A stretch of DNA of 64,000 bases from Oligoflexia bacterium (GTDB lineage Bacteria > Bdellovibrionota > UBA1018). A program made the position numbers and the translations under genes. The notes under the pieces were generated by a model. The model did not search any database, was not told where the DNA came from, and was given only the letters and a program-made list of their open reading frames with translations. Position 1 is the stretch's first letter, and each line of letters opens with the position of its first letter. The stretch is from assembly GCA_963758495.1 (NCBI GenBank), contig CAVWVI010000003.1, positions 1,440,001 to 1,504,000 of the forward strand. The letters are read 5' to 3'. This document shows, piece after piece, positions 1,423 to 27,120 of this stretch.

Positions 1423-2848
1423 TTACAATAGATTTTGTATCGCCTCTACAGCTTCTCGAATGACTGGATCATGATCCATGCCTGCTTCAATTTTACTACA
1501 TGCGTGTAAAATGGTGGTGTGATCTTTGCCGCCAAAATAACTACCAATCTCCTTGAAGCCAAGACCCGTGTACTTTCGCATGAGATACATCGCAATTTGT
1601 CTCGGAAGTGCTACAGCTCGAATTCGAGTAACAGACTTTAGGTCTTGAATTCTCAAATGGTAGTGCTTCGCCACTGCTTGTTGAATCGATTCGATTGTAA
1701 AATTAGACCCTTCATCAGGAACGGCCGTTTTCAACTCATGTTTTGCCATCTCGAGAGAAATTTCAGCTCCAGTCAATGATGCTTGAGCTTGAAGCCGAAT
1801 TAAAACACCTTCTAACTCACGAACATTAGACTTAATATAAGAAGCTAAAAAAGTCGCGACATCATCTGGAAGATAGATATCATCTCGCTCTGCTTTCGCT
1901 TTAAGAATCGCAATTCTGAGTTTCAATTTCGGGAGGGCTAATATCGGCGACTAAACCCCACTCAAATCGAGTCCTCACACGCTCTTCCAATCCTTCAATT
2001 TCCTTCGGAGGCCGATCACTTGAAACCACGATTTGCCTCTTTGAGCTATGGAGTGCATTAAAAGTATGAAAAAACTCTTCCTCACTGGTGTTTTTGCCTG
2101 CAATAAATTGAATATCGTCGATCAAAATCATGTCGTAACTGTCGCGATACTTCGCTCTAAATTGTGGCATCCGCCTATGCTGTAAAGAATCAATGAGCTC
2201 ATTCACAAATTTTTCAGCTGAAAGGTAGGCCACCCGTGCATTTGGGTTTTGTGCGAGCAAGCGATTTCCAATTGCATGAAGTAAATGCGTTTTTCCTAAT
2301 CCAGGAGGGCTATAAAGGAAAAGGGGATTGTATTGGCGTGCAGGCTGTTCAGCTACCGCAACTGCAGTTGCATGCGCAAATTGATTACTCGCACCCACAA
2401 CGAAACTATCAAAAGTATATCGAAGATCCGGATAATCGTTACCCGATCGAAGACTGGTATGCACTACCCCAGGCGCTGAAGTGACTAATGGAGTGCCGCC
2501 TGAGGACTGAGGGGCGGATATCTGAAAGTCTTGTTCGATCAGGTTAAATTTAAAATCCTTTATAATTTCTTTCACTTGAAGCTGTAGCTCACAGGGTGAG
2601 CCTGCCACTTGTGCAAGAGCGCCCTCAATGGCTTTTTGATAATGATCTCGCACCCATTGGGCCGAAAAGTCATTAGGGGCAGCCATGACTGCTTTATGGC
2701 CATTTTGAACTTGCTCTATCTCCAGCAATTCCAATGGATAGATCCACGCATGGAACTGGTTGGGTACCACCGTCTGCTCTAAAAGACGACAAGCAGCCTG
2801 CCATAATTCGGGCAGTTGCCCTGTGTTGAAGTGAATTGAATTATTCAT
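1423..2848 (-). CDS. dnaA: Chromosomal replication initiator DnaA, split by a +1 frameshift near 1918-1921
   Basis: YNPLFLY..PGLGKTHL Walker A, LIDDIQF Walker B, EEFFHTFN in ORF 1901..2890; SNVRELEG and FGGKDHTT in ORF 1423..1926; ATG at 2848 taken as start. Confidence 0.95.
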
Positions 2849-2946
2849 AGCCGAACTAATTGAACTAACATGAGGGCTTCTACTTGACAATGAGCCTTCT
2901 CTCCGATAATTCCTTTTGATCTTATTTTTTTGGAGCTTTATTTAAT

Positions 2947-8395: not shown

Positions 8396-9559
8396 ATGAT
8401 GCTCTATGGATGGCCAGAAACCGACGAATCAAAAAAACTTCTTATTGAACAAGTGCGATCTTTCGCTCAGGAAAAAATACTTCCTCAAGCCAAAGAACTC
8501 GATGAGACTGGCACATTCCCGACCGAAATTATAAAGCAACTAGGTGAGATGGGAATGATGGGAATGATGGTACCTGAACAATGGGGTGGTTCCGGTATGG
8601 ATACCGTCTCTTATGCGATTGCCCTGGAAGAAATCGCGGCTGCTTGTGCATCCACCGCAGTCATTATGTCAGTAAATAACTCGTTGGTTTGCTCCCCCAT
8701 CCTCAAATTTGGAAATGACTACCAAAAACAGAAATTTCTAACTCCTCTCGCAAAAGGGGAGAAATTAGGCTGTTTTGCTCTTTCTGAGCCAGGTCATGGT
8801 TCAGACCCTGCCGGCCTCGAATGCCAAGCAACACCTGTTTCAGGAGGCTACACGCTTCGTGGAACTAAAAATTGGATTACCAGCGGCAAAGAAGCAGACT
8901 ATTGTATAGTTTTCGCAACCGTAGATAAAAACCTGGGTCATAAAGGAATTTGTGCCTTTATCGTAGATACTCATTCAGAAGGTTTTCAAGTTTCAAAGCT
9001 CGAAGACAAATTAGGAATTACGGCTTCCTCTACAGCACAACTGTTTTTCGATGACGTATGGGTTCCTAACGAATGTTTATTAGGAAAAGTAGGCGAAGGA
9101 TTTAAAATCGCTCTTTCAACTTTGGATGGAGGACGAATCGGTATTGCATCACAAGCCTTAGGTATTGCGAGATCTGCATTTGACGCATCGAAAAAATTTG
9201 CATTAGAGCGCGAACAATTTGGAGCACCCATTGCAAAACTTCAAGCCATCCAGTGGTTTATTGCTGATATGGCAACTCGCCTTCAAAGCGCGCGCCTTCT
9301 CACTTGGGCAGCAGCCAAAGGACGAGATTCTGGATCTCCGTATACAAAAGAAGCTGCAATGGCTAAATTAGCCGCATCTGAAGCCGCAATGTGGATCACA
9401 ACCAAAGCGATCCAAGTGCATGGCGGTTATGGTTACACGAAAGAGTATGTTGTAGAGAGAAACTTTCGCGACGCAAAAATTACTGAGATCTACGAAGGAA
9501 CATCGGAAATTCAAAGAATCGTCATTGCCGCTCAAGAATTTGCTGAAACCGCTCGCTAG
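8396..9559 (+). CDS. Short-chain acyl-CoA (butyryl-CoA-type) dehydrogenase
   Basis: GCFALSEPGHGSD, KNWIT, LDGGRIGIA, IQVHGGYGY, IYEGTSEIQR. Confidence 0.95.
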   Translation: MMLYGWPETDESKKLLIEQVRSFAQEKILPQAKELDETGTFPTEIIKQLGEMGMMGMMVPEQWGGSGMDTVSYAIALEEIAAACASTAVIMSVNNSLVCSPILKFGNDYQKQKFLTPLAKGEKLGCFALSEPGHGSDPAGLECQATPVSGGYTLRGTKNWITSGKEADYCIVFATVDKNLGHKGICAFIVDTHSEGFQVSKLEDKLGITASSTAQLFFDDVWVPNECLLGKVGEGFKIALSTLDGGRIGIASQALGIARSAFDASKKFALEREQFGAPIAKLQAIQWFIADMATRLQSARLLTWAAAKGRDSGSPYTKEAAMAKLAASEAAMWITTKAIQVHGGYGYTKEYVVERNFRDAKITEIYEGTSEIQRIVIAAQEFAETAR

Positions 9560-9611
9560 GAAAAGGGACGGCGCAGCATCCTCCCTAGGTACTCAACTTC
9601 ACCAGAAACCG

Positions 9612-9640
9612 TTTTGATATCCCAATTTGGGATATCAAAA
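9612..9640. repeat. Perfect 29-bp palindrome TTTTGATATCCCAA-T-TTGGGATATCAAAA, same family as the array at 20626-21119
   Basis: 14-bp arms read directly; + frame reads LISQFGISKMESHGERQNPPF, resembling the ORF6N LxSQFxxSxxxHGGRR region. Confidence 0.85.
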
Positions 9641-9925
9641 ATGGAATCTCACGGTGAACGACAAAACCCCCCTTTCTTCAGACGGGTAAGAACAAGTACT
9701 TAAACGAACTACGCAAAGAGAGTAGTTTAGCCTCTAAAGTCTACGACTTCCACCGCCTTAAATGACACTTTAAGTATGTTCAAAAAGTATCTTTGCGACC
9801 TTATTAAATTCATACAAATTAGTCAAATATCCAATTTAAAATCAGATAAATTTAGTCAACAATTTATTACAAAAATCGCCTTAACTTCGAAAATACTAAA
9901 AATTATTACTCAGGTACCGTTTTTT

Positions 9926-10410
9926 TGTGGATAAGTCTGTGGATAAGTGTGTGGATAACTTTTCGTCAAAAAACTTATCCACAAGTTATCCACAGGGTTA
10001 TCCACAAGTTATCCACATCTTACACAAGATGTTTGTCTATAATATCAATACCTTATAAAGTTATCCACATCTTACACAATTTCTATCCCGAATGGAATAT
10101 TTGATTAGTTAACTTTATTACTAGGTCTTTGTGGATAACTCTAAAAAATGACCTCAAAAAATGGCTGTTTTTAGTCAATACATGACTACCCATATCAGGT
10201 AAAAAAGTTATCCACAAAATCGTGTGGATAAGTGTGTGGATAACTTTTTTTTAGGGGTAAAATAAAGTTATCCACAAAATTGAAAAAGTTATCCACAGAC
10301 TTATCCACAAAGTTATCCACATGGTTTCTATATTAATTTCAATAAGTTAAGTGAGTTATCCACTTATCCACACGCCCTACTACTACTACTGTCTTAATAT
10401 ATATATAATT
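9926..10410. promoter_or_regulatory. oriC: Chromosomal replication origin oriC
   Basis: 17 perfect TTATCCACA/TGTGGATAA boxes counted between 9926 and 10372; last box followed by CGCCC, TACTACTACTACT trios (10378-10390) and an AT-rich run; directly upstream of dnaN. Confidence 0.95.
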
Positions 10411-10551
10411 CTTAAGAGGGGGGCCGGGATAAAACGTTAAAAAATTGATCACAAATAAAACCCAACTCTTTTCTAACGCTATCAAGAGTATGTAGATTAC
10501 AAACTAGAAATGGGCTAAGATAAGCACCGATAAGAAAGGACTGCCTGAGCC

Positions 10552-11658
10552 ATGAACTTTTCAATTGATCGCTCACCGCTATTAGAAGCACTTCAAAAAG
10601 TGCAAACCGTGGTTGAGAAAAAAAATACAATACAAATTCTTGGCAGCATTCTTTGCACAGTGAAAAATCAAGAGTTATCTCTTTGTGCAACAGACTTAGA
10701 AGTCGGGATTAAAGTGAATCTCCCAGTAGAGGCTCAGCAGGAGGGAAAGATTACTCTCTCAGCAAAGCACTTTCTAGATATTGTCAAAGAACTTCCAGAG
10801 AAGAAGCTGACCATTACGAGAAAGGACAATAGTTGGATTGAAATCAACTGTGGGAAATCCCGCTTTAATATAGTGAGTCTTTCAGCGGATCAGTTTCCGT
10901 CCCTTCCTGGGTTTGAAGATAAGATTTATTTTGAGGCACAAACCAAGTCTTTAATTGATATGATTGATCGGACACAGTTCGCTGCTTCTACGGACACAAC
11001 ACGGTATCACATTAACGGGGTATTCTTTGAACACCTTGAAAACAGCGTCATGAGAATGACCGCAACAGACGGTCATCGATTGTCCTTTGTAGATCAAGAA
11101 GTCTTTTTGAATAACCCTGATCTTAAACGGGGGATTATTATCCCGAAAAAAGGGTTAGCAGAATTTAGAAAAATTTTAGATGAAGGTAGTCAAACTATCG
11201 GTCTTTCTTTTGAGAGAGGCTATATTTTTGCAAAGTTGGAAAGTACTTATTTGTTTATTCGTTTGATCGATGGCGAATATCCTGATTATAGACCTGTGAT
11301 TCCCAAGGCCGTTGATCGGTTGGTGAAAATTGATCGACAAACTTTTAATTCTGCGCTCAAACGAGTCAGCTTACTCGCAAACGAGAAAAGCAGAGGAATC
11401 AAACTGACTCTACAAGCAGGTTCTCTTGTTATTTCTTCCAGTAATCCAGATATGGGAGAAGCACATGAAGAACTTGAAGTTGAGTATACAGGTGAATCCA
11501 TGGAGATTGGTTTTAACTCTAAATACTTGCTTGAGAGTTTAGCTGTCATGAAGTCAGAAAAACTAGAATTTCATCTTAAAGACCGATTGAGTCCTGGAAT
11601 TCTGCGAGAAGTGGATCACCAAAACCATACTTACGTTATTATGCCTATGCGAATTTAG
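10552..11658 (+). CDS. dnaN: DNA polymerase III beta sliding clamp
   Basis: ATDLE, ATDGHRL, GEYPDY, IGFNSKYL, C-terminal VIMPMRI. Confidence 0.98.
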   Translation: MNFSIDRSPLLEALQKVQTVVEKKNTIQILGSILCTVKNQELSLCATDLEVGIKVNLPVEAQQEGKITLSAKHFLDIVKELPEKKLTITRKDNSWIEINCGKSRFNIVSLSADQFPSLPGFEDKIYFEAQTKSLIDMIDRTQFAASTDTTRYHINGVFFEHLENSVMRMTATDGHRLSFVDQEVFLNNPDLKRGIIIPKKGLAEFRKILDEGSQTIGLSFERGYIFAKLESTYLFIRLIDGEYPDYRPVIPKAVDRLVKIDRQTFNSALKRVSLLANEKSRGIKLTLQAGSLVISSSNPDMGEAHEELEVEYTGESMEIGFNSKYLLESLAVMKSEKLEFHLKDRLSPGILREVDHQNHTYVIMPMRI

Positions 11659-11666
11659 TCAATTTA

Positions 11667-15339
<3,673 letters not shown>

Positions 15340-15373
15340 GAATTGTAGCTATAAAGGCGGATAAGTAAAGATC

Positions 15374-17941
15374 ATGAGTGAAACACTGCCTCAGGAAAAA
15401 AATGTAATTGTTGTTAATATTGAAGATGAAATGCGTGGAGCCTACCTCGATTACGCCATGAGTGTCATCGTAGGTCGAGCGTTACCAGACGTTCGTGACG
15501 GTTTGAAGCCAGTTCACCGACGAGCGCTCTATGCAATGTATGATTTAGGTAACGTTCACAATAAACCTTATAAAAAATCAGCCCGTGTCGTGGGTGACGT
15601 TATTGGTAAATACCATCCGCACGGAGATGTACCAGTCTATGAAACCATTGTCCGAATGGCACAAGGCTTCTCGCTTCGATATCCGTTGATTGATGGACAA
15701 GGAAATTTCGGCTCCATCGACGGTGATTCTCCGGCAGCCATGAGGTATACCGAGATTCGAATGGCAAAGATCACAGATGAACTTCTGGCTGATCTGGATC
15801 GCGAAACAGTAGATTTCACACCCAATTACGATGATAGTTTAACGGAACCTTCCGTTCTTCCAGCTAAAATTCCAAATTTACTCATTAACGGTTCAACAGG
15901 AATTGCAGTTGGAATGGCAACTAATATTCCTCCACATAATTTGTCAGAAGTGATTCAAGCAACGATTGCTCTGATTGATAATCCCAAGTTAATTGCGGAT
16001 GAACTCACACAGTATGTAAAGGGACCTGATTTTCCGACAGGTGGTTTTATATTTGCAGGACAAGGACTAAAAGATGCCTATCGAACTGGACGTGGCGCAA
16101 TCACGCTCCGAGCGAAGGTAGAAATAGAAATTTGGAAAGGCGATCGAGAGAGGATTATTGTTACCGAGCTTCCTTATCAAGTGAATAAAGCAAAGCTGAT
16201 CGAAAAGATTGCTGATTTAGTGAAGGATAAGAAAATAGAAGGCATTTCAGACTTAAGAGATGAGTCTGATCGTACGGGGATGAGAATTGTAATTGAAATT
16301 AAAAAGGGTACGAATTCAAATGTACTTTTGAACCAGCTTTATAAGCTGACTCAGCTTCAAGATAGTTATGGAATTAATTTGCTGGGAATTCATCAAAATC
16401 GTCCCAAGCTCTTTAATTTAAGAGATTTGCTTTGGGCGTTCATTGAACACCGCAAAGATGTTGTCGTTCGTCGGACCCTCTATGACTTAAAAAAAGCTGA
16501 GGCCAGAGCTCATATTTTAGAAGGATTGAAGAGAGCGGTTGAGTATATTGATGAAGTCATTTCATTAATTAAGCAGGCAGGAAACCCTGAAGAGGCTCGT
16601 TCCGGATTAATGGGACGTTTCGAGTTTTCAGAATTACAAGCACAGGCAATTTTAGAAATGCGTTTACAACGGCTCACTGGCCTTGAGCGCGATAAAATTG
16701 TGGATGAATATAAGCAGATTTTACTTTCAATTGAAGCCTTGAAGAAGATTTTATCAAGTGAAGCTCTTGTATTTGAGGTGATTAAAAAAGAACTTTTAGA
16801 AATACAAAAGAATTATGGTGATAAAGATAAGAGACGTACTGAAATTATCCTGGGGGGATTGAATGATTTTGAAGTGGAAGATCTCATCTCTGACGAGGAT
16901 ACGTTAGTTTCAATTACGCATGCAGGTTATATTAAGAGAGCTGATCCTAATTTATTTCGAAGTCAGCATCGTGGCGGACGTGGAATTCGGGGCGTAAGCA
17001 CGGGAGATGAAGATTTTGTTACGGCAATCTACCGAACAAACACTCTGAGTTACCTACTCTGTTTTACGGATAAGGGAAGATTGTATTGGCTCAAAGTTTA
17101 TAAAGTTCCAGAAGCGAGCCGAATTGCTAAAGGTAAAGCGATTGTAAACTTAGTGGCCCTTTCTCCTTCAGAGAAGATAAAAGCCATTCTTCCCGTTCGA
17201 GAATTTAGTGACCATGAATTTGTGGTGATGGTCACCCGTGCGGGAGTTATTAAAAGGACCGCATTAAGTGAATTTAAAAATGTCAGAGCGGCTGGACTAA
17301 CTGCGATCTCAACAGATGAAGGGGATGAACTCGTCAGTGCAAAATTGACTAAAGGTAATAATGATATTTTCCTTTGTTCCAGAGATGGAATGAGTATTCG
17401 CTTTAATGAGCAAGACGTAAGGGTGGTTGGACGCACTGCTCGCGGTGTAGCGGGAATGAATCTTTCCGATGATGACCGTGTGGTAGCGATGGAAGTTTTG
17501 GATATTTCTGATGGAACTCCACAACAAGAATATGAAATTCTCACTGTGACCGAAAACGGTTATGGAAAGAGAACTCCTGTGAGTGAATATCGTATTCAAA
17601 GTCGTGGAGGGGTCGGCGTTATTACGATGAAGACGAATGACAGGAATGGAACCATTATGGGTTCTCGTCAAGTATTGCCTAAAGATGATGTCATGTTGGT
17701 ATCGAGCAAAGGGCAAATGATTCGTATTCATGTAGGTGAAATCTCTGAGCAAGGACGAAACACCCAAGGGGTTCGACTCATTTCCTTGTCACCTGCAGAA
17801 AAGCTAGTTTCATTTGAATACCTGGCAGAAAATGCAATTGAAGCTGTAGTAGAGCTCACAAGTGAACAGCTTGTGCCGGAACCCGTCTTAGAGGGAGAAG
17901 TTTTCATTGACGGAGCAGAAGGTGATGGAGGTCTCAGCTGA
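15374..17941 (+). CDS. gyrA: DNA gyrase subunit A
   Basis: [23 protein letters not shown], GyrA-box-like QHRGGRG. Confidence 0.98.
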
Positions 17942-17955
17942 CGAGGACAGCCAGC

Positions 17956-18798
17956 TTGAGATCTTTAACGCAATGGACCCGGGCGTTAAATCCGCTATTG
18001 ATAAGTGGTTTGCTAGTGATTTCAAACAGTGCATGTAGTGTGGATAGCGCCCGAAGTCACTACGTTCTAGCTGAGAAGCTTTGGACTGATCAAAAATATA
18101 CTGAGGCAGTTTCAGAGTTTGAGAAAGTCATGAGTAAAGATTCCCATGGAAAGCTTGGCCTTCAAGCGATCTACCGTGCGGCTATGACTCAGTTTTTATT
18201 TCTTTCTCAATATAACGATGCTGTCCGAAAGTTTAGGGCGTATGCTCAAGAAAGTACGGATCAGAAGTCAGCTTGGATAGCGCAGTTGCAAATCGGTGAG
18301 ATTTTATTTTCAAAAACTGAACAATACGATCAGGCTATTCTTCACTACCAGTCCATGCTTAAACTGGATCCTTTAGCTCCAGAAGCACCTGAGCTTTTAT
18401 TTAGAGTTGGAAAAAGTTTTTTTTATCTCTTTCAATTTAAGGAGGCCGTGAGTACCTACGAAGACTTAATTAAGAAATATCCTCAGTCGGCTTGGGCTGA
18501 AAAGGCGATGTTTGAGATTGGGTCCACTTATTTCACTCAAGGAGAGCAAAACTCTGACGTTGGAATGGAAGCCTATCAGGTAGCGATCCATGCCTATGAA
18601 AGGTTTATTAAGCACTATCCTCAGAGTACTCGAGTGGTAGAAGCTCATTTTGGAATGGCCTCTTGCTTGGAGGAGTTAAATCAACTCAGTGAAGCTTGTC
18701 GAGCCTATGAAGCTTTAAAAGGGATTTATCCGTCCCCTCACGTGATTGAGGTCAAACTCCTGCGAATTCACAAACGAATCGCTCAACGGAATCGGTAA
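17956..18798 (+). CDS. TPR-repeat putative lipoprotein (BamD/CpoB-like)
   Basis: Repeated helical YxxAxxxY..LIKKYPQS patterns; N-terminal hydrophobic stretch with SAC. Confidence 0.7.
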   Translation: MRSLTQWTRALNPLLISGLLVISNSACSVDSARSHYVLAEKLWTDQKYTEAVSEFEKVMSKDSHGKLGLQAIYRAAMTQFLFLSQYNDAVRKFRAYAQESTDQKSAWIAQLQIGEILFSKTEQYDQAILHYQSMLKLDPLAPEAPELLFRVGKSFFYLFQFKEAVSTYEDLIKKYPQSAWAEKAMFEIGSTYFTQGEQNSDVGMEAYQVAIHAYERFIKHYPQSTRVVEAHFGMASCLEELNQLSEACRAYEALKGIYPSPHVIEVKLLRIHKRIAQRNR

Positions 18799-18992
18799 TG
18801 GATTGGAAAAAACTAGGCTTATTTACGGCTATCTTGACTGAATTTATTGCATACTCTGGCGCTGGGTTTGGCTTAGGATACCTGGTTTGGGCTAAGTGGG
18901 GGGCTCCCTGGTGGGTGCTTGGAATTTTCAGTTTAAGTGGGTTGAGTCTAGGAATTTACAAAATCTATCAGCTTTCCCAGAAAGAACTTTAA
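18798..18992 (+). CDS. AtpZ/AtpI-family small membrane protein
   Basis: 64 aa, two hydrophobic helices with GFGLGYLVWAKWGAPWW; upstream of atpB. Confidence 0.7.
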   Translation: MDWKKLGLFTAILTEFIAYSGAGFGLGYLVWAKWGAPWWVLGIFSLSGLSLGIYKIYQLSQKEL

Positions 18993-19142
18993 CGAAATTC
19001 TGGAAAAGAGAAGAGGACGACAGGACCCATTCCAGAGAATTTGCCCGAGAAGTTGGTCGAGCCGCAAAGCTCGCGGTTGACGGCAGGGCTAACCAAGTGT
19101 ACAAACGAAAAACGCCTATGGAACCGATGAGGGTATTATCTA

Positions 19143-19856
19143 ATGCATGAGGAGCATGGTTTTAATTTACTGTCTTATATTCCTCTTTTGAAGGAACTTC
19201 CCAATCATGTCGCAATGACCATTGTGGTATGTCTGGTTTTGGTTGCAACTACGTTCATTGCAAAGCTTCAGTTAGTTCGCGCAATGCAAGGACCGGATGG
19301 CGGTTTAGTTCCTGATGTAAAACTGACTTATAAAAACTTTTTTGAAATTATTGCGGAAAGTCTCTTTAAGTTGACTGAGTCTGTAATTGGACATCACGAT
19401 GCCCCTCTTTATTTCCCTATCATCGGATCGCTTTTTGCTTTGATTTTTACCTGCAACATTGTGGGGCTTGTTCCAGGTCTTTTGCCTCCTACAGATAATC
19501 TAAATACTACTTTGGCTTTAGGTATCTTTGTTTTTATTTATTACAATTACGTTGGATTCAAAGCCCATGGGTTGGCTTATTTGAAGCAGTTTCTAGGACC
19601 AGTTCTTTGGTTAGCGCCCTTGATGATCATCATTGAATTAGCTTCCCACCTTTTTAGACCACTTTCCCTTGCGTTTCGTTTACGCGGGAATATTATGGGC
19701 GATCACGTCGTCCTCGGAGTTTTTAGCACATTGGTACCCTACCTCTTACCTGTAATTTTTTATGGGCTGGGAGTGTTCGTGGCCTTTATACAGGCCTTCG
19801 TCTTTTGTTTGATGACGATGGTCTATATTTCCCTGTCGACATCACATGATCATTGA
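19143..19856 (+). CDS. atpB: ATP synthase F0 subunit a
   Basis: [29 protein letters not shown]. Confidence 0.96.
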
Positions 19857-19876
19857 GAAGAAAGGATGAATTGAAA

Positions 19877-20185
19877 ATGAATTTTCGTAAGACCCTGTTA
19901 TTAATTGGGACTTTAGTAATGACTTTTGGCGCTTCGTTCGCTTTTGCTGATGAAGCAGCAGCGGCACATGGAGCAGGTATGGGTTCACTTGGAGCCGCAT
20001 TAGCTATCGGTATTGCAGCATTCGGTGGAGCTCTCGGACAAGGTAAAACAGCTGCAGCAGCCTTGGAAGGGATTGGACGTAATCCATCTGCTCAAAATAA
20101 AATTTTCGTACCTATGATTATCGGTCTTGCCTTGATCGAATCTCTTGTTTTGTACGCATTCGTTATCGCTTTCGTCAAATACTGA
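19877..20185 (+). CDS. atpE: ATP synthase F0 subunit c with N-terminal extension
   Basis: GGALGQG, EGIGRNP loop, LALIESL. Confidence 0.96.
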
Positions 20186-20351
20186 GATCTGTATATATGT
20201 AAGTTCTCGACGACATCTGCGGGGTTAATCATTTTTTGTGACCCCACAAATGTTGTTGAGAACTTTTTTTTCAAACACTTTCCTCTCCCTTTTTAAATTC
20301 CCTTTTTCCTCCTCATATTTTTGTAACTTTTCTAAAACCTGAATCAAGTGT

Positions 20352-20423
20352 AAGCACTACGCGGAGTCCTGTTGCGCCGGGAATCCAAATCTTTACGGCA
20401 CAACAGGACTCCGTGTAGTGCTT
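20352..20423. repeat. 72-bp GC-rich inverted repeat (28-bp arms, 2 mismatches, 16-nt loop)
   Basis: AAGCACTACGCGGAGTCCTGTTGCGCCG ... CGGCACAACAGGACTCCGTGTAGTGCTT. Confidence 0.9.
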
Positions 20424-20480
20424 GTCAACAGCCCTAAAGGAATTACTTACGATCAAGTGAAGTGTGACATGGCTTCCTCG

Positions 20481-20570
20481 TTTAAGGACGCAATTTGCGA
20501 CCTTAAAGAAAAGTGAACATGGTAACTATCAGAAATACTTATCTTTTACGGAGATGAGTATGATTCTTTA
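20481..20570 (+). pseudogene. Decayed ORF6N-domain fragment containing a palindrome (20481-20507)
   Basis: TTTAAGGACGCAA-T-TTGCGACCTTAAA; frame from 20482 reads LRTQFATLKKSEHGNYQKYLSFTEMSMIL*, resembling LNSQFPISSTEHGGRRYLPYIFTEHGATML in the downstream gene. Confidence 0.65.
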
Positions 20571-20625
20571 AGGTCGCTGATGTGCCGTCAGATAGCGAAA
20601 TGAGAGAGTTGTGAATTGTTCTCCA

Positions 20626-21119
20626 AACTTGAGGTCGCAAATTGCGACCTCAAGTTGCGATGCGTTATTTATAGTCTTAGATATCAAAACTTGAGATGCC
20701 AATTTGGCATCTCAAGTTGTAATTTTCTCGGCGTTCATTGGGTTTTACATTTAAAATCAACTAGTTATATAGGAAATCTTGAGATGCCAATTTGGCATCT
20801 CAAGTTAGATTTACCTAAATTTGCCTACCAATTTTTATTTTAAAATTCATATATACATAAACTTGAGGTCGCAAATTGCGACCTCAAGTTGCGATGCGTC
20901 ATTTGTTATTTCGGGTACAACTTGAGGCGCCAAATTGGTACCTCAAGTTGTAAGATTCTAAAATTTAATAAAAATTCACATTTAAAATCAATTAGTTAGA
21001 TAATAAAACTTGAGGTGCTAAATTGGTACCTCAAGTTTTATAAGCTTTGGAAGTTCAAGTTTTGGGGTGTTAATTTAAGATTTCAAAAAACTTGAGGTCG
21101 CAAATTGCGACCTCAAGTT
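20626..21119. repeat. Array of seven 31-bp palindromes (consensus AACTTGAG-N4-CAA-W-TTG-N4-CTCAAGTT) with 28-57 bp AT-rich spacers
   Basis: Copies start at 20626, 20688, 20776, 20860, 20919, 21007 and 21089; spacers 31, 57, 53, 28, 57 and 51 bp. Confidence 0.95.
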
Positions 21120-21184
21120 ACAGAAGTAAATTTTACTATGATTTAATATGGTGCGAGATTCTAAAAGGGTGTAGATCGCATGCC

Positions 21185-22102
21185 ATGCAATTAACAATTA
21201 GCGAAATTAGGCGACGGATCTACTTTATGCGTGGTCAGCGTGTAATGCTGGATGTCGACTTAGCAAAATTCTACGAAATTTCAACTAAGCGTTTAAATGA
21301 GCAGGTAAAGAGAAATATCAGTCGGTTTCCGGAAGATTTTAGATTTCGACTTACAGAAAATGAATGTGATGAATTGAATTCACAATTTCCAATTTCAAGC
21401 ACTGAGCATGGAGGAAGGCGATATTTACCTTATATTTTTACGGAGCATGGTGCCACAATGTTAGCAAGTGTTTTGAATACTGACCGGGCCATTCAAGTAA
21501 ATGTAACTATTGTTCGTGCTTTTGTTCAAATCCGTGAGTCCTCAATCCAAAAAGAGCTAGCATTAAAAGTAATGACACTAGAGAAACAGTACACTGAGGT
21601 CTCGAAAGTTATCTCCGATGTTCATTTAAAACTTATGGCCCTGACTTCGCTACAAAAGACTAATTCTTTTAAAACTCGTTACAATAAAGCTGACTTAAAA
21701 GAGCAAGAACATGTCTCGCTTGATACTAAGTTAGAGACACTGACTCTCGTTACAAAGGAAGCTAAAAGAGATTTCAATAACGCTAACGCTATCAATGAAG
21801 TGCCTCACAATCTTATAATCGGCGAAATTCAAAAAGCTGTAGCAAGATATTATAATGTAAAAATTCAGGATTTACGAAGTACAACTCGCATCAAGGTAAT
21901 CGCATTGGCCAGACAAATCGCGATGTATTTAGTCCGAAAACATACGGGGATGAGTTTTAAAGACATTGGAACTCATTTCGGTGGTAAAGATCACACAACA
22001 ATTATGCATGCTTGTAGTAAGGTTGAAGTGAGTATAAAAATAGATGCTTCAATTCGGAACGCTATAGAGTCGATTGAAGGGGTTTTGTCAAAAAATATTT
22101 AA
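21185..22102 (+). CDS. ORF6N (KilA-N-like) domain protein fused to a DnaA C-terminal (domain IV) HTH
   Basis: N-terminal IYFMRGQRVMLDVDLAKFYEISTKRLNEQVKRNISRFPEDF..GGRRYLPYIFTEHGATMLASVL; C-terminal 87 aa align gap-free to this window's DnaA domain IV (53/87 identical by hand); alternative TTG start at 21092. Confidence 0.9.
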   Translation: MQLTISEIRRRIYFMRGQRVMLDVDLAKFYEISTKRLNEQVKRNISRFPEDFRFRLTENECDELNSQFPISSTEHGGRRYLPYIFTEHGATMLASVLNTDRAIQVNVTIVRAFVQIRESSIQKELALKVMTLEKQYTEVSKVISDVHLKLMALTSLQKTNSFKTRYNKADLKEQEHVSLDTKLETLTLVTKEAKRDFNNANAINEVPHNLIIGEIQKAVARYYNVKIQDLRSTTRIKVIALARQIAMYLVRKHTGMSFKDIGTHFGGKDHTTIMHACSKVEVSIKIDASIRNAIESIEGVLSKNI

Positions 22103-22248
22103 ATTATTAAAGTTTATACTCTAAACGATTTTCAGTTGTCTAAAATATAAACACTATTTTCTTAAAACACCCATAAAAACAGCATAATTCCAATACTTTG
22201 TCGTCGGCACCATTGTTGCTTAAGGTAAATCCTACGAAGGATGGAGTT

Positions 22249-22443
22249 ATGATAAGTAAGTCTTCTGCAGGTTTAGATGAAATATTAGAAATACTAGATC
22301 TATTCAGATATGATATGAGTGATTCTGAATACGATCACGCTCGAAAAGTGATCTTATCTAAGGGGAATGGTTTATCAGCTGAATTTGATTTAGCTGTCAG
22401 GGCTGATCAACAGAAAGTCATTGAATTCTTCAGGGAATTATAA
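22249..22443 (+). CDS. Small hypothetical protein
   Basis: ORF with GGAG upstream of ATG 22249; no recognised motif. Confidence 0.45.
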   Translation: MISKSSAGLDEILEILDLFRYDMSDSEYDHARKVILSKGNGLSAEFDLAVRADQQKVIEFFREL

Positions 22444-22477
22444 TGAATTCATATTTTATCGTATATGAATTCATTAT
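22440..22477. repeat. Perfect 15-bp inverted repeat with 8-nt spacer (operator-like)
   Basis: ATAATGAATTCATAT-tttatcgt-ATATGAATTCATTAT. Confidence 0.8.
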
Positions 22478-22493
22478 GTATTTTTAAGTAATT

Positions 22494-23387
22494 ATGAATA
22501 AATTAACTAAATATAGCTATAAGCTAATGGTAATTAATTTCTGGACTTTATTGATAGCGCTCGGTCTGAGCCCATCATGGGTACTTGCATGTAATTCACT
22601 TTTTATTGACGAAGGTACGATTAAAAAAATACCGAGCGTTATTAAGGCAACTGAAAATAGTTCCAATAATTTTCAGGCTTATATTGATGCCTATGAATCA
22701 GCATGTAAGGAACAAAATGAACTCATGACGAGGATCTTAGGCCAAATGGCACCTCATGATCCAACAAAAGACGCTCAAGATCATGAGGTTGTCGTGATCG
22801 ATAATACTCTCTTATCCATTAAAAAAATGATTGAATCCAATTACAGCTTTGAAGAAAGCTGGAACAATAATAGCAGCAGAATAAATACAAACCCGTTTGA
22901 TTATCTTTATCAGGAAGTGTGTCAAGGTAGAATTACTCATTCTTATATACAGTATTCTATATCTAAACTAAGAGAATCTATTTTTAATGGAGGATCTACT
23001 CAATTCAGTACTCAAGAAAATGCTTATCCGCAATTAATAACAGTATTTGAAGGAAAAAAGTTGGTGGGTCTTGCATTTTATGAGTATCACGGTAGAGACG
23101 GCTTCACGGAAGATTCTGTGGTTATTGATTTAATCTGTGTTGCAAAGGGAAAGCAGCTTGGAGAAAAAATAATTACTAGTTTAGAAAATAAAAATCTTAA
23201 AGCCACAAATGCAAATCCAGGTTCTCTGAAGAGAAGAAAAATTACTTTAAACTCTATCGCTAACCCGAAGACATTTAGTTTTTATGAACGAATGTCATTT
23301 AAGGTAGACATGTCTGGAAATTCAGAAGAAGGTATTCCAATGATTAAGGAAATTGAATTCAACCTTACCCAGAGAATTCTCAATTAA
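22494..23387 (+). CDS. Hypothetical exported protein with C-terminal GNAT-like region
   Basis: Signal-like N-terminus; KLVGLAFY..IDLICVAKGKQLGEKII..FSFYERMSF resembles GNAT motifs A and B. Confidence 0.55.
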   Translation: MNKLTKYSYKLMVINFWTLLIALGLSPSWVLACNSLFIDEGTIKKIPSVIKATENSSNNFQAYIDAYESACKEQNELMTRILGQMAPHDPTKDAQDHEVVVIDNTLLSIKKMIESNYSFEESWNNNSSRINTNPFDYLYQEVCQGRITHSYIQYSISKLRESIFNGGSTQFSTQENAYPQLITVFEGKKLVGLAFYEYHGRDGFTEDSVVIDLICVAKGKQLGEKIITSLENKNLKATNANPGSLKRRKITLNSIANPKTFSFYERMSFKVDMSGNSEEGIPMIKEIEFNLTQRILN

Positions 23388-23509
23388 AGAGAACATGCGT
23401 GCGTAAATAATTAACAAATATAATTTAATTAAATTGTATAATACTTAGACAGTTGTTAACGTAATTCAAGTCGCCTTTCTTTTTTTAATCCCATAACCTA
23501 CTGTTTGTA

Positions 23510-24088
23510 TTGATGAAAGCGATGGCATCTGAATTGCTTTTACTATCATTAACTATGATAATAAAAAGCACAAATTTAAAAAATAATACATTAAATACTT
23601 TAATCGCCGGTATCGTGGTCACCACTTTAGTTGCTCTATTCGCCGTTACAGAAAACTCTTCTTATGCTCACTCTCAAAGAGGCGAAATTGCAAGTGCTAG
23701 TGCTCATGTATCAGTTACAGTGGTAACCCCACTCGGTATGGATACAAAGAAGAATTTTACTTTGAATGAAGTGACTCAAGGTTCAAAACCCCAAGTGATA
23801 CAGCCTACTGATCAGGGTGCTACTCAATTTTATGCAACTGGAGAGAAAGATCATCTGATTACACTCTCATTTGATTCTCAAGTTTCCTTAAATGATGGGG
23901 CTGGTAACCAGATTGGTTTTAATCATATCAGATCGAATGTAGGCGATGGAAGTTCTGGAAATAGTACTAAGTTAAATGCTGCAGGAGTCAAAGGTTTTCA
24001 GTTGGGAGGAAGCAGAGCTGCTTTTTCCAAGAATCAGGTAGTCGGGATGTATTTAGGCTTTCTAAAAGCAACTGTTGTTTACCAATAA
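23510..24088 (+). CDS. Secreted beta-rich protein, DUF4402-like
   Basis: Signal-like segment, ASASAHVSVTVVTPL, FQLGG..GMYLG..ATVVYQ pattern. Confidence 0.55.
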   Translation: MMKAMASELLLLSLTMIIKSTNLKNNTLNTLIAGIVVTTLVALFAVTENSSYAHSQRGEIASASAHVSVTVVTPLGMDTKKNFTLNEVTQGSKPQVIQPTDQGATQFYATGEKDHLITLSFDSQVSLNDGAGNQIGFNHIRSNVGDGSSGNSTKLNAAGVKGFQLGGSRAAFSKNQVVGMYLGFLKATVVYQ

Positions 24089-24127
24089 AGTGGAAATATT
24101 CCGTTTTAAGGATATTCTATTTTTAAA

Positions 24128-24451
24128 ATGGAGGTCGTCGTGACGAAAGCATTCTTTTATCTGATTCCAATCTTTATATTGTCTGCCTGCGCTTCGCCTC
24201 GGGTGGGTAATATGGGTCTTCTCTATACGGATACAGAAACGGGTCTAGCTGTGACTCAAAACCTTGCCGGAACTCGAGTCGGCGAGGCATGTTTACAGTC
24301 CTATTTAGGATTGATCTCAACTGGAGATGCGAGTATTGAAACCGCGCGACGTACAGGAGGAATTACCTCTATTACGTCTGTAGACGAGAAATCCACGGGT
24401 ATTCTAGGTTTTATTTATCGAAAATATTGTACCGTTGTTCGTGGAAGATAA
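24128..24451 (+). CDS. TRL-like small lipoprotein
   Basis: Lipobox LSAC; GEACLQSYLGLISTGDASIETA..GGITSITSVD..CTVVRG. Confidence 0.8.
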   Translation: MEVVVTKAFFYLIPIFILSACASPRVGNMGLLYTDTETGLAVTQNLAGTRVGEACLQSYLGLISTGDASIETARRTGGITSITSVDEKSTGILGFIYRKYCTVVRGR

Positions 24452-24459
24452 GCCGGGTT

Positions 24460-27120
24460 TTATTCAAGGTAAGATTTTAAAAATCTTCCGGTATGACTCG
24501 CCTTGTTTTTAACTACTTCTTCAGGGGTTCCAATAGCGATAATAGAACCACCCGCTGTTCCTCCGTCCGGCCCTAGGTCAATAATATGATCTGCGACTTT
24601 AATGATGTCTAAATTATGTTCAATGATGATGACGGTGTTTCCTTGGTCTACCAGAGCTTGTAAGATGGCAATCAGTTTATTGATGTCATCAAAGTGTAAC
24701 CCTGTAGAAGGCTCATCTAGTATGTAGACAGTTCGACCTGTACTACGACGAGAAAGTTCTTTAGAGAGCTTAATTCTTTGTGCTTCACCCCCAGAAAGAG
24801 TGGTGGAACTTTGCCCGAGATGAAGATAGCCTAGGCCTACTTCATTAAGGATCTTGAGTTTGGCTTTGATGTGAGGGATTGCCTCAAAGAACGGATAGGC
24901 TTCGGCGCCAGTCATTTCAAGAACGTCCGCAATATTTTTCCCTTTATAGCGAATCTCCAGGGTCTCTCGATTGTATCTGCGGCCTTTACAGATGTCACAT
25001 TGAACATAGACGTCAGGGAGAAAGTGCATTTCAATTTTTGTGGTGCCATCGCCTGCACATGCTTCGCAGCGTCCTCCTTTTACATTGAAGGAATATCTTC
25101 CTGGACCGTACCCCCGAACTTTGGATTCAGGAAGTTGCGCGAAAAGTTCTCTAATGAAGCTGAAAAGGCCAGTGTAGGTGGCGGGATTGGAACGTGGAGT
25201 TTTTCCAATCGGGCTTTGATCAATGTCGATCACTTTATCAATATGGTTCATGCCGTGAATTTTACGGACATGAAGATCGCCATAATTAATCTTATAGAGA
25301 GATTGAATTAAGGAGCGATAAAGGGTGTCAATAATGAGAGTGCTTTTACCGCTTCCAGAAACTCCGGTGACGCAAGTCAGGACACCTAGTGGCACATCCA
25401 CATGGATGTTCTTTAAATTATTTTGAGTAGCCCCTTCCATTCGTAGAGCGCGGTCAGACGTCCATGGGCGTCTGACTTTGGGAATTGCAATTTTTAAGTC
25501 ACCTCGCAAATAGCGACCGGTTAAACTTTTCTTAGATTTTAAAATATCTTTGACGGTGCCAGCTGCAACAATATGTCCACCTAAGTTGCCTGCTCCTGGT
25601 CCTAAATCTAAAACCCAATCTGCTCGTTCAATTGTTTCTCGGTCGTGTTCGACAACGAGTACTGTGTTCCCTAAGTCACGAAGGCGGGAGAGGGTGGAAA
25701 TGAGCTTTTCATTGTCGCGTTGATGGAGACCAATACTTGGCTCGTCCAGAACATAAATGACACCTACCAGGGAGCTTCCGATCTGAGTCGCTAATCGAAT
25801 TCTTTGTGCTTCTCCACCGGAAAGGGTTTGAGCAGAGCGACCTAGGCTGAGGTAACCGACACCGACTTCATTGAGGAAATGGAGACGTTCCTTGATTTCC
25901 TTTAAGATTCGATCGGCAATCATTTTTTCACGATCTTTCAAATTTAGAGTTTCGAAAAAACGTGCGACTTCTAGGATGGAAAAGCTACAGATTTCGGCAA
26001 TATTTTTATTTACGAGTTTGAAACTTAAGCTTTCTTTACGGAGTCGTGTTCCGAGACAGGATGGACACGCATCTGTTTCTGCAGTGATTTCACGGGGAGC
26101 TATGATTTCATCACGTTCGTTTTCACGTTCAGTTTTAAGAAGAGCTTCTTCATCTTCTTTGTCCTTTGCTTGACTCTTTGCTGGATCAATTCCCAGACCA
26201 TCACATTGAGGACAAGCTCCCATGGGGCTGTTGAATGAAAACGTTCTGGGTTCAGGCTCTGGATAGCTGATATGACAATTCACACAAGAAAACTTTTCTG
26301 ACATGAGAGTTTCTTTGCGGACAGAATTTTCTTGAGTTTCGAGCAGGAGAAGACCTTCACCTAGTTTCAAAGCAAGTTCTACGGAATCGCTGACACGAGT
26401 GCCAAACATTCCCAGATCGTCTTTATTCGTTGAAGGACTAGCGGCTGGATTAATTATAGGTATAATTAAACGATCAATGTAGACTGAAATATCATGTTTT
26501 TTGTTTTTATCTAAAGAAATATCCTGTGAAAGGTCGAGGACCTCTTGATCTACTTTCACCCGAACAAATCCCCTTTGGCGAAGCTGCTGCAGTTCCTTTT
26601 GGTATTCTCCCTTTCGTCCACGAACGATAGGAGCGAGAACGGATATGCGTGTTCCCTGAGGAGAGGAGAGGATATGATCCACAATCTGTTGAGGGGATTG
26701 CGATTGGATGGGCATTCCACATTTCCAGCAGAAAGGCTTTGCTATTCTAGAGTAAAGCAGTCGTAGGTAGTCATAGATTTCGGTAACAGTTCCTACCGTG
26801 GATCGAGGATTGTAGCTCGTGGTTCGTTGCTCGATTGATATCGTAGGGCTTAATCCAGAAATGGATTCAACATCTGGCTTTCCTAACTGTTCTAGAAATT
26901 GCCTGGCATATGCAGAGAGGCTTTCCACATAACGACGTTGACCCTCGGCATAAATAGTATCAAATGCGAGTGACGACTTGCCAGAACCCGATGGCCCCGT
27001 GATCACGGTGAGTCGATCTCTCGGAATGACAGCATCAATATTTTTAAGATTGTGCACTCGAGCGCCTCGCACGACGATGGCTTCGTCATTATTAAGAGGT
27101 GCACGACGTTTTGTTGTCAT
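24460..27120 (-). CDS. uvrA: Excinuclease ABC subunit A
   Basis: GARVHNLKN, two Walker A motifs (GSGKS), LSGGEAQRI twice, Zn-finger cysteines. Confidence 0.98.

Follow-up and report, generated by a model that had tools for sequence, protein, structure and literature searches.

The question raised by this locus is why a gene that joins an ORF6N domain to the DNA-binding domain (domain IV) of DnaA should stand close to the replication origin, oriC, behind a series of palindromes of one family. The locus was found in a stretch of 64,000 nucleotides (the window) from an Oligoflexia bacterium (assembly GCA_963758495.1, contig CAVWVI010000003.1, positions 1,440,001 to 1,504,000), and coordinates refer to the window unless preceded by a locus number. 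On balance we lean towards the view that the fusion protein is a two-headed tether, which would loop its own locus to oriC and compete there with DnaA. Fusion genes of this kind lie non-randomly close to oriC in two lineages, in partial support of the original prediction, made from the letters of the window alone. The gene, its parts and its paralogue are as follows.

21185..22102, + strand: fusion gene, 305 amino acids (aa), ORF6N, coiled coil, linker and DnaA domain IV (from Pfam, an AlphaFold model and the family)
21185..21532, + strand: ORF6N winged-helix-like head, with E39 in the predicted recognition helix (from Pfam, conservation, the model and the helix-to-site table)
21374..21398, + strand: decayed in-frame copy of the family palindrome within the fusion gene, 8 of 12 pairs kept
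21482..21673, + strand: predicted helix spanning residues 100-163, then a linker modelled with low confidence (AlphaFold model)
21815..22099, + strand: DnaA domain IV head, with the equivalents of R399, D433, H434, T435 and H439 intact
L001:7654-8586, - strand: second intact fusion of the same genome, 46 kilobases (kb) left of oriC, 42% identical to the first

Both domains are encoded in one frame, as had been predicted: Pfam recognizes ORF6N (PF10543, E-value 1e-33, 116 bits against a curated cut-off of 27.8) and Bac_DnaA_C (E-value 8e-30), and a match to the PADLOC candidate PDC-S05 (E-value 2e-48) is limited to the N-terminal half. Translation most probably starts with the ATG at 21185, in line with the starts of the homologues; a 336-aa version starting at 21092 (a TTG that is the last array palindrome read in frame) and a 75-aa frame at 20616 were rejected as by-products of the palindromes. 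The AlphaFold model (92-sequence alignment, mean predicted local distance difference test score 88.9) comprises a winged-helix-like head, a long helix (residues 100-163) that is probably a coiled coil, a linker and domain IV. The latter superimposes on the E. coli complex of domain IV with a DnaA box (1j1v) with a root-mean-square deviation (rmsd) of 0.8 and Z 19.0, and it keeps the R399 equivalent and the DHTT-H recognition helix. An AAA+ domain III or a domain I was found neither by Pfam nor in the model, and the protein falls far under the NCBIfam cut-off for DnaA (110 vs 344 bits). The description of domain IV as a close copy of the host's own goes too far, the identity being 60% over 90 residues, compared with 57-58% to other DnaAs of the order, so that the resemblance to host DnaA is a trait of the clade; in the tree described below it is not the sister of host DnaA, and a recent copy of the host domain is therefore ruled out. 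In the literature, isolated DnaA domain IV is reported to bind boxes sequence-specifically (PMC5835720), and R399A and T435M to abolish box binding in E. coli DnaA (PMC5742627). Domain IV of the fusion very probably binds the DnaA box.

The origin region contains the following elements.

9614..9638, no strand: perfect family palindrome with a TCCC core (R class, see below), 288 base pairs (bp) outside the first DnaA box
9793..9803, + strand: half-site of the TCGC class, starting 133 bp before the first DnaA box
9926..10372, no strand: oriC, 17 perfect DnaA boxes (11 + 6) upstream of dnaN (box scan, GC skew)
10552..11658, + strand: dnaN (Pfam), the marker for the origin in relatives
1423..2890, - strand: host dnaA, inverted and 7 kb to the left of oriC, its reading frame interrupted by a one-base frameshift near 1905

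We assign oriC to 9926-10372 because of the 17 perfect boxes upstream of dnaN and because the minimum of the cumulative GC skew of the contig (window position 6658) lies 3 kb from the box cluster. The frameshift in host dnaA is probably an assembly error, since 2 of 25 orthologous loci tested show a frame change. The count of 17 boxes was borne out, but not its significance as the sign of a tailored system: it is a trait of the clade, the same 17-box origin being present in three relatives without a fusion, and we dismissed the boxes as a part of the fusion system. Among assembled origins of this lineage the carriers have 17, 17 and 17 perfect boxes and the non-carriers a median of 4 (n = 45), while in the second lineage carriers have 9-21 consensus boxes with a median of 3 for comparison; this link is confounded by kinship, and box-rich origins occur in four non-carriers as well.

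Apart from dnaA, this genome has three domain IV loci, two of them to the right of oriC (at 11 and 86 kb) and one to its left (at 46 kb). When the neighbours of each gene were mapped onto this genome, which was feasible for 9 of 12 fusion genes (two of them this genome's own) and for 14 of 51 unfused ORF6N genes, 7 of the 9 fusion genes vs none of the 14 unfused ones fell within 60 kb of oriC. Counted by independent slot, 4 of 6 are near oriC (p 0.003), or 3 of 5 without the discovery slot (p 0.01, Fisher). In the immediate flank of the origin, the relative G112 has an intact fusion whose end lies 224 bp ahead of the first box, and G070 has, after the box cluster, a palindrome, a pseudogene of domain IV and an intact fusion, the palindrome being identical to the site of that genome's other fusion 50 kb away. 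Altogether, a family gene or palindrome stands 224-288 bp outside the boxes in all 3 carriers with an assembled oriC vs none of the 22 non-carriers whose flank measures 1.2 kb or more (p 4e-4). In the second lineage 5 of 7 fusions lie within ~75 kb of oriC (binomial p 4e-5): one starts 2.5 kb after dnaN, the neighbours of another lie 4.7 kb before dnaN, and those of three more lie at ~32, 37 and 64-73 kb in the closest assemblies. The dnaA gene of that lineage is mostly on other contigs or 91 kb away, which argues that the fusions follow the box cluster and not dnaA. Judged by these map positions, where the gene sits depends on its having domain IV.

The other head can be matched to DNA by covariation. 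We compared 71 ORF6N loci (52 unfused, 19 fusions), in which 47 of the 52 unfused genes and 14 of the 19 fusions have an internal palindrome; one of these 14 is the decayed copy of the window gene (8 of 12 pairs), which has cognate sites upstream instead, so that 13 of the 19 fusions have an intact one. Among the 58 genes with a parsed helix and an internal site, residue 39 fits the core of the site in 57 (E with TCGC, 19/20; Q with TCAC, 22/22; K with TTCC, 7/7; L, 1/1; R with TGCC, TACC or TCCC, 8/8), with the reservation that the table was derived from the same genes as were scored and that kin are not independent. A better check comes from the seven genes that lack an internal site, six of which have a cognate non-coding site alongside (one of them if CGCC is counted, by extension, as R class). 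The window fusion is of the E type, with TCGC in 4 of its 8 upstream sites; its paralogue is of the Q type, with TCAC in 6 of 7 called sites (two upstream, four downstream, none internal), the seventh being an AT-rich false call. Judged by covariation, cognate sites are thus repeated at the gene's own locus, and in all likelihood the ORF6N head binds such a site there. Palindromes are also present at homologous genes, as expected if the arrangement were general, but large arrays are not the rule: most loci have one or two sites. The in-frame motif is kept in 32 of 100 fusions vs 98 of 108 unfused proteins, the latter chosen by likeness to the window protein.

Upstream of the window gene the palindromes are arranged as follows.

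20482..20506, no strand: eighth upstream palindrome, with the TCGC core on one arm
20553..20576, + strand: eight ORF6N-like codons ending inside a left half-palindrome
20629..21116, no strand: array of seven 25-bp palindromes upstream of the fusion gene, three with a TCGC core and four of R class

The seven palindromes noted originally were recovered as seven 25-bp cores, laid out as a duplicated three-site unit of ~234 bp plus one, and the further members proposed at 20482-20506 and beside oriC (9614-9638) were confirmed; the original prediction had overlooked the decayed palindrome within the gene and the second fusion of the genome. A strict scan of the 3.66-Mb genome gave 13 matches (9 in the window, 3 at the second fusion and 1 unrelated), compared with 0-3 in each of 15 shuffled genomes. 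Read in frame, the array palindromes yield an LRSQIATSS-type motif, as carried inside ORF6N coding sequences; by this token the upstream palindromes are copies of the ORF6N coding palindrome, and the codons at 20553-20576 are probably a relic of an earlier ORF6N coding sequence. The palindrome at 9614-9638 is probably the relic of a lost fusion gene, because G112 and G070 hold an intact fusion in the same slot; a search left of oriC for an ORF6N or domain IV coding relic found none. Together with the four R-class sites of the array it is best read as a set of relics, since a relative has an R-type fusion in the same slot between atpE and uvrA, the array is duplicated and the codons at 20553 are ORF6N-like (the labels atpE, uvrA, serS, leuS, lepA, prfB, metK and purB are those that we presume from the translations, not the output of a tool). 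The suggestion that this protein uses the 9614 palindrome as its bridging site is not supported, as the specificity class of the palindrome, judged by the helix-to-site pattern, matches neither fusion of the genome. The only site beside oriC predicted to fit an E-type protein is the half-site at 9793, which has 7 other matches in the genome outside the array; its chance of occurring in the oriC flank is ~7e-4, for a site found post hoc.

The fusion is not a one-off. A profile search run against 1.84 billion representatives, together with an initial homologue search (best 150 and 120 matches, respectively), yielded at least 265 proteins, at least 106 of them with both ORF6N and domain IV and no pair more than 70% identical, and the ESM Atlas contains a 68-member cluster of this architecture, mostly Bdellovibrionota among the 20 members with known phylum. 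The box-reading residues are conserved in the 106 fusions (R399 equivalent in 106, H434 in 102, D433 in 95, T435 in 79, with S in 21). The ratio of non-synonymous to synonymous substitution rates (dN/dS), taken over unsaturated pairs, is 0.10-0.24 for ORF6N (9 of 11 pairs) and 0.11-0.27 in the case of domain IV (8 of 11), hence neutral evolution, which would have spoken against a function, was not observed; with both domains intact and under purifying selection, the protein is predicted to be the two-headed DNA binder originally proposed. In the orthologues of G070 and G071 the dN/dS of domain IV is 0.20 (approximate counts, p 2e-4), and because this pair shares one slot, domain IV appears to be selected while resident.

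Several derivatives of the architecture were observed. L380:2856-3182 encodes 108 aa, keeping the first residues and domain IV of a fusion and lacking the whole ORF6N head, while L375:1-2451 contains three tandem ORF6N genes with a different site class each, at least one of them a full fusion and one with a separated piece of domain IV. The protein P0202 (673 aa) consists of five tandem domain IV-like repeats. Two shorter ORF6N genes of the second lineage (L457:4697-5329 and L460:3726-4397) look like eroded fusions, one located right after dnaN and one with a partial domain IV. In the window genome, the locus 86 kb right of oriC is a truncated domain IV remnant (L002:5790-5981), ~4 kb from a transposase-like gene pair and with no ORF6N gene or palindrome seen beside it.

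The distribution of the fusion is patchy. Within the family to which this genome belongs, 10 fusion genes and 2 remnants are spread over 5 of 75 genomes (4 of the 5 carriers with at least 2 genes), and in the second family 5 of 21 genomes carry 7 fusions; named records with fusions belong to Bdellovibrionia or Oligoflexia and, in a second set, to Myxococcales or Myxococcaceae, the search pattern reaching only fusions with one motif variant. Searches of 52 further genomes of the class, and of 343 genomes sampled from the phylum outside the family (up to 6 candidates scored in each of these 343), detected no full-length fusion, and a first search of 40 relatives found none. The viral loci inspected (80 of at least 506, 80 of 96 and 2 of 2) gave no full-length fusion, and none was found in 85 plasmid and 39 phage records; all the loci seen are chromosomal. 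Viral contigs (L023-L102 and L212-L291) encode many DnaA domain IV-like proteins without ORF6N, in at least 506 stretches, mostly in frames under 300 aa. In a tree of domain IV (53 rows, 94 columns, one near-copy omitted, 14 outgroup rows hand-picked from DnaAs) the fusions of the second lineage fall into a single clade (100/99), separate from the DnaA of their own hosts (100/99), whereas the domain IV sequences of the fusions as a whole cluster, weakly, with DnaA of the order to which this genome belongs (80/14). These two placements point to an import of domain IV into the second lineage and not to capture from host DnaA.

The mechanism that we propose is as follows. The gene would be an accessory, horizontally moving one, and its product a two-headed DNA tether. 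The ORF6N head would bind a palindrome of its own class within or next to the gene that encodes it, probably with autorepression as well, while the captured domain IV, beyond the coiled coil and a flexible linker, would bind DnaA boxes. A dimer anchored at its own locus could then loop to the box cluster of oriC, a contact that would weaken with distance and be best when the two are close. Since domains I-III are missing, the protein should be capable neither of unwinding DNA nor of loading the helicase, but only of occupying boxes and competing with DnaA. Contact in cis would account for the accumulation and turnover of copies within tens of kb of oriC, whether by guided insertion, by selective retention or by both. 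The contact may serve the gene, in insertion or inheritance, or the host, as a brake or in defence. Patchiness, pseudogenes and the repeated use of slots favour an accessory element, and selection in place suggests that the contact matters after arrival, too; dimerization, looping and the effect on initiation are steps that we infer.

If the tether exists, it would give a non-essential gene direct access to oriC, be it for hitch-hiking, for guiding insertion or for slowing initiation, and the gene's chromosomal position would be explained by a protein-DNA contact. We tentatively entertain a bolder version, a selfish origin-homing gene that grips its own DNA through a palindrome reader retunable by one residue and the host origin through domain IV. 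In that case incoming or excised copies would ride with oriC and land beside it, residents would retain a grip on initiation, and the element would be a bacterial counterpart of the viral episome tethers (EBNA1, LANA and E2). Given the near universality of the DnaA box, such a gene could function in different phyla; the box of E. coli has the same consensus. Either way, the widespread, uncharacterized ORF6N family would gain a first testable output, a known domain with loss-of-binding mutants and a one-residue site code. A literature search over titles and abstract openings, which left most subscription journals uncovered, found no ORF6N-domain IV fusion, no accessory gene aimed at DnaA boxes and none that combines an intact box reader with clustering at the origin.

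Several facts weigh against the tether. The independent slots are few (4 of 6 near oriC, or 3 of 5 without the discovery slot), 2 of the 9 mappable genes of the first lineage are not near oriC in the strict test (their wider neighbours lie at 58 and 134 kb) and 3 of 12 are not mappable, while in the second lineage 2 of 7 genes have neighbours off the oriC contig. Most distances are inferred by synteny in fragmented assemblies, and gene order breaks down in the most distant reference; 37 of the 51 control loci are unmappable, and the origin of some controls in more distant families makes a 'far' call more likely. The 9614 palindrome and 4 of the 7 array sites belong to a class without a predicted ORF6N reader in the genome, and 68 of the 100 fusions lack the in-frame motif, flanking DNA being unavailable for most of them. 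Finally, most loci have no recombinase beside them and the viral, phage and plasmid collections gave no fusion, which leaves a mobile form hypothetical.

Other explanations account for parts of these data. A trans-acting defence or addiction module, in which domain IV would block origins with DnaA boxes (oriC, plasmids, prophages), the gene's own palindromes would restrain it and closeness to oriC would be secondary, seems to us rather unlikely. It would accommodate the PDC-S05 match of the ORF6N half and the patchy, multicopy, rapidly turned over fusions, and one PDC-S05 representative is reported to cut the plating of T7 and T5 ~1,000-fold, although that tested protein had a Virulence_RhuM domain and not ORF6N (bioRxiv 10.1101/2024.09.26.614923). 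A precedent would be BstA, a protein with a KilA-N-like domain that inhibits phage DNA replication and is in turn suppressed by a DNA element lying in the locus that encodes it (PMC8585504); no BstA homology was seen, no comparison aimed at BstA having been made. A trans effector, however, does not predict clustering at oriC, and the neighbours of the fusions are mostly housekeeping or unrelated genes. It is improbable that position is merely historical, i.e. that the fusion arose beside oriC, at the junction of an ORF6N gene with the 3' end of dnaA (a gene inverted away from oriC in this clade), and was then copied over short range, with no contact with oriC implied. The weak grouping (80/14) with DnaA of the order, the G112 copy at the place of a canonical dnaA end and pointing at oriC, and the fact that carriers rank among this genome's closest relatives in dnaN identity would all agree with such a birthplace. 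Yet in the second lineage the fusion, apparently an import, stands by oriC and not by the dnaA of its host; paralogues of the same genome share ~42% identity with saturated synonymous divergence, the G070 copy points away from oriC, and domain IV is under selection in place.

A domesticated regulator that holds oriC shut in a non-replicating phase, the array serving as a dosage-timed sink like datA, is in our opinion quite improbable. The box-rich origins of carriers and the report that datA acts through its position near oriC (PMC5742627) are in its favour, but only 5 of 75 and 5 of 21 genomes carry the fusion, it is missing in close relatives with the same 17-box origin, different slots are used, pseudogenes occur and kinship confounds the box counts. 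We give very little credence to the idea that co-location is a coincidence, or that the palindromes are spare coding cassettes or recombination sites instead of binding sites. The array units do read as in-frame variants of the motif, there is one coding relic in the array region, and the atpE-uvrA slot also takes in other low-GC genes; on the other hand, the spacers are out of frame, one unit has a stop, the array gave no match to an ORF6N profile, non-coding sites agree in class with the helix encoded by the adjoining gene, and unfused ORF6N genes do not cluster at oriC.

Compared with known systems, the fusion protein is a member of the ORF6N family by domain and is not a DnaA, nor can it be assigned to the Par-type tethers or to BstA. 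It has in common with ORF6N/PDC-S05 proteins the head domain, the 25-bp palindrome family and the helix-to-site pattern, and differs from them by its C-terminal tail (DnaA domain IV), the frequent loss of the internal site and the clustering near oriC. The layout of the model (winged-helix head, coiled coil, distal module) recalls that of pSK1 Par and RacA (PMC11500499), and StbA likewise is a single protein without an NTPase, with sites at its own locus, that positions R388 (bioRxiv 10.1101/2022.04.29.490116). The head aligns weakly with the DNA-binding domain of pSK1 Par (Z 5.0, rmsd 2.1, 53 residues), which may reflect a common fold, and no sequence match of the fusion to Par was found; unlike in pSK1 Par, RacA, RocS and StbA, the distal module is a sequence-specific DnaA-box domain instead of an anchor to membrane or pole. 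BstA and its aba element resemble the fusion in the KilA-N-like head, the cognate DNA element in the own locus and the link with replication, whereas aba is 63 bp long and, in the available text, not described as a palindrome, and BstA is prophage-encoded with no DnaA domain (PMC8585504). The PADLOC and NCBIfam scans listed no BstA model, with no BstA-directed comparison made, and no prophage genes lie beside the fusion loci. With DnaA the fusion shares domain IV and its box-reading residues, without the AAA+ domain and domain I; proximity to oriC also matters for datA (PMC5742627), which binds DnaA itself, whereas the fusion locus encodes a rival binder. REP (repetitive extragenic palindromic)-associated tyrosine transposases are also accessory proteins with a DnaA-like helix-turn-helix tail, but that tail is highly diverged (E-value ~1e-4 to 1e-8) and has no box-reading motif, and the fusion has no nuclease domain. 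Weak domain IV matches in the second lineage were rejected as fusions, being transposase-like instead. Genes similar to REP-associated tyrosine transposases, with a diverged domain IV-like tail, are found in many second-lineage genomes (e.g. L459:5111-6055 and L461:3621-4625).

As regards the surroundings of the gene, an Rfam scan of 9400-24500 matched no RNA gene, and a promoter scan gave no signal above chance level. The atpE-uvrA slot is empty in the relatives G008 and G070; in the window its remainder (22198-24451) contains four low-GC genes, encoding an 81-aa protein without assignment and GNAT-like, DUF4402-like and TRL-like proteins. A long hairpin at 20352-20423 (z -8.3, no Rfam match) is a REP-like repeat present at ~70 places in the genome, one of them 1.3 kb upstream of the second fusion gene.

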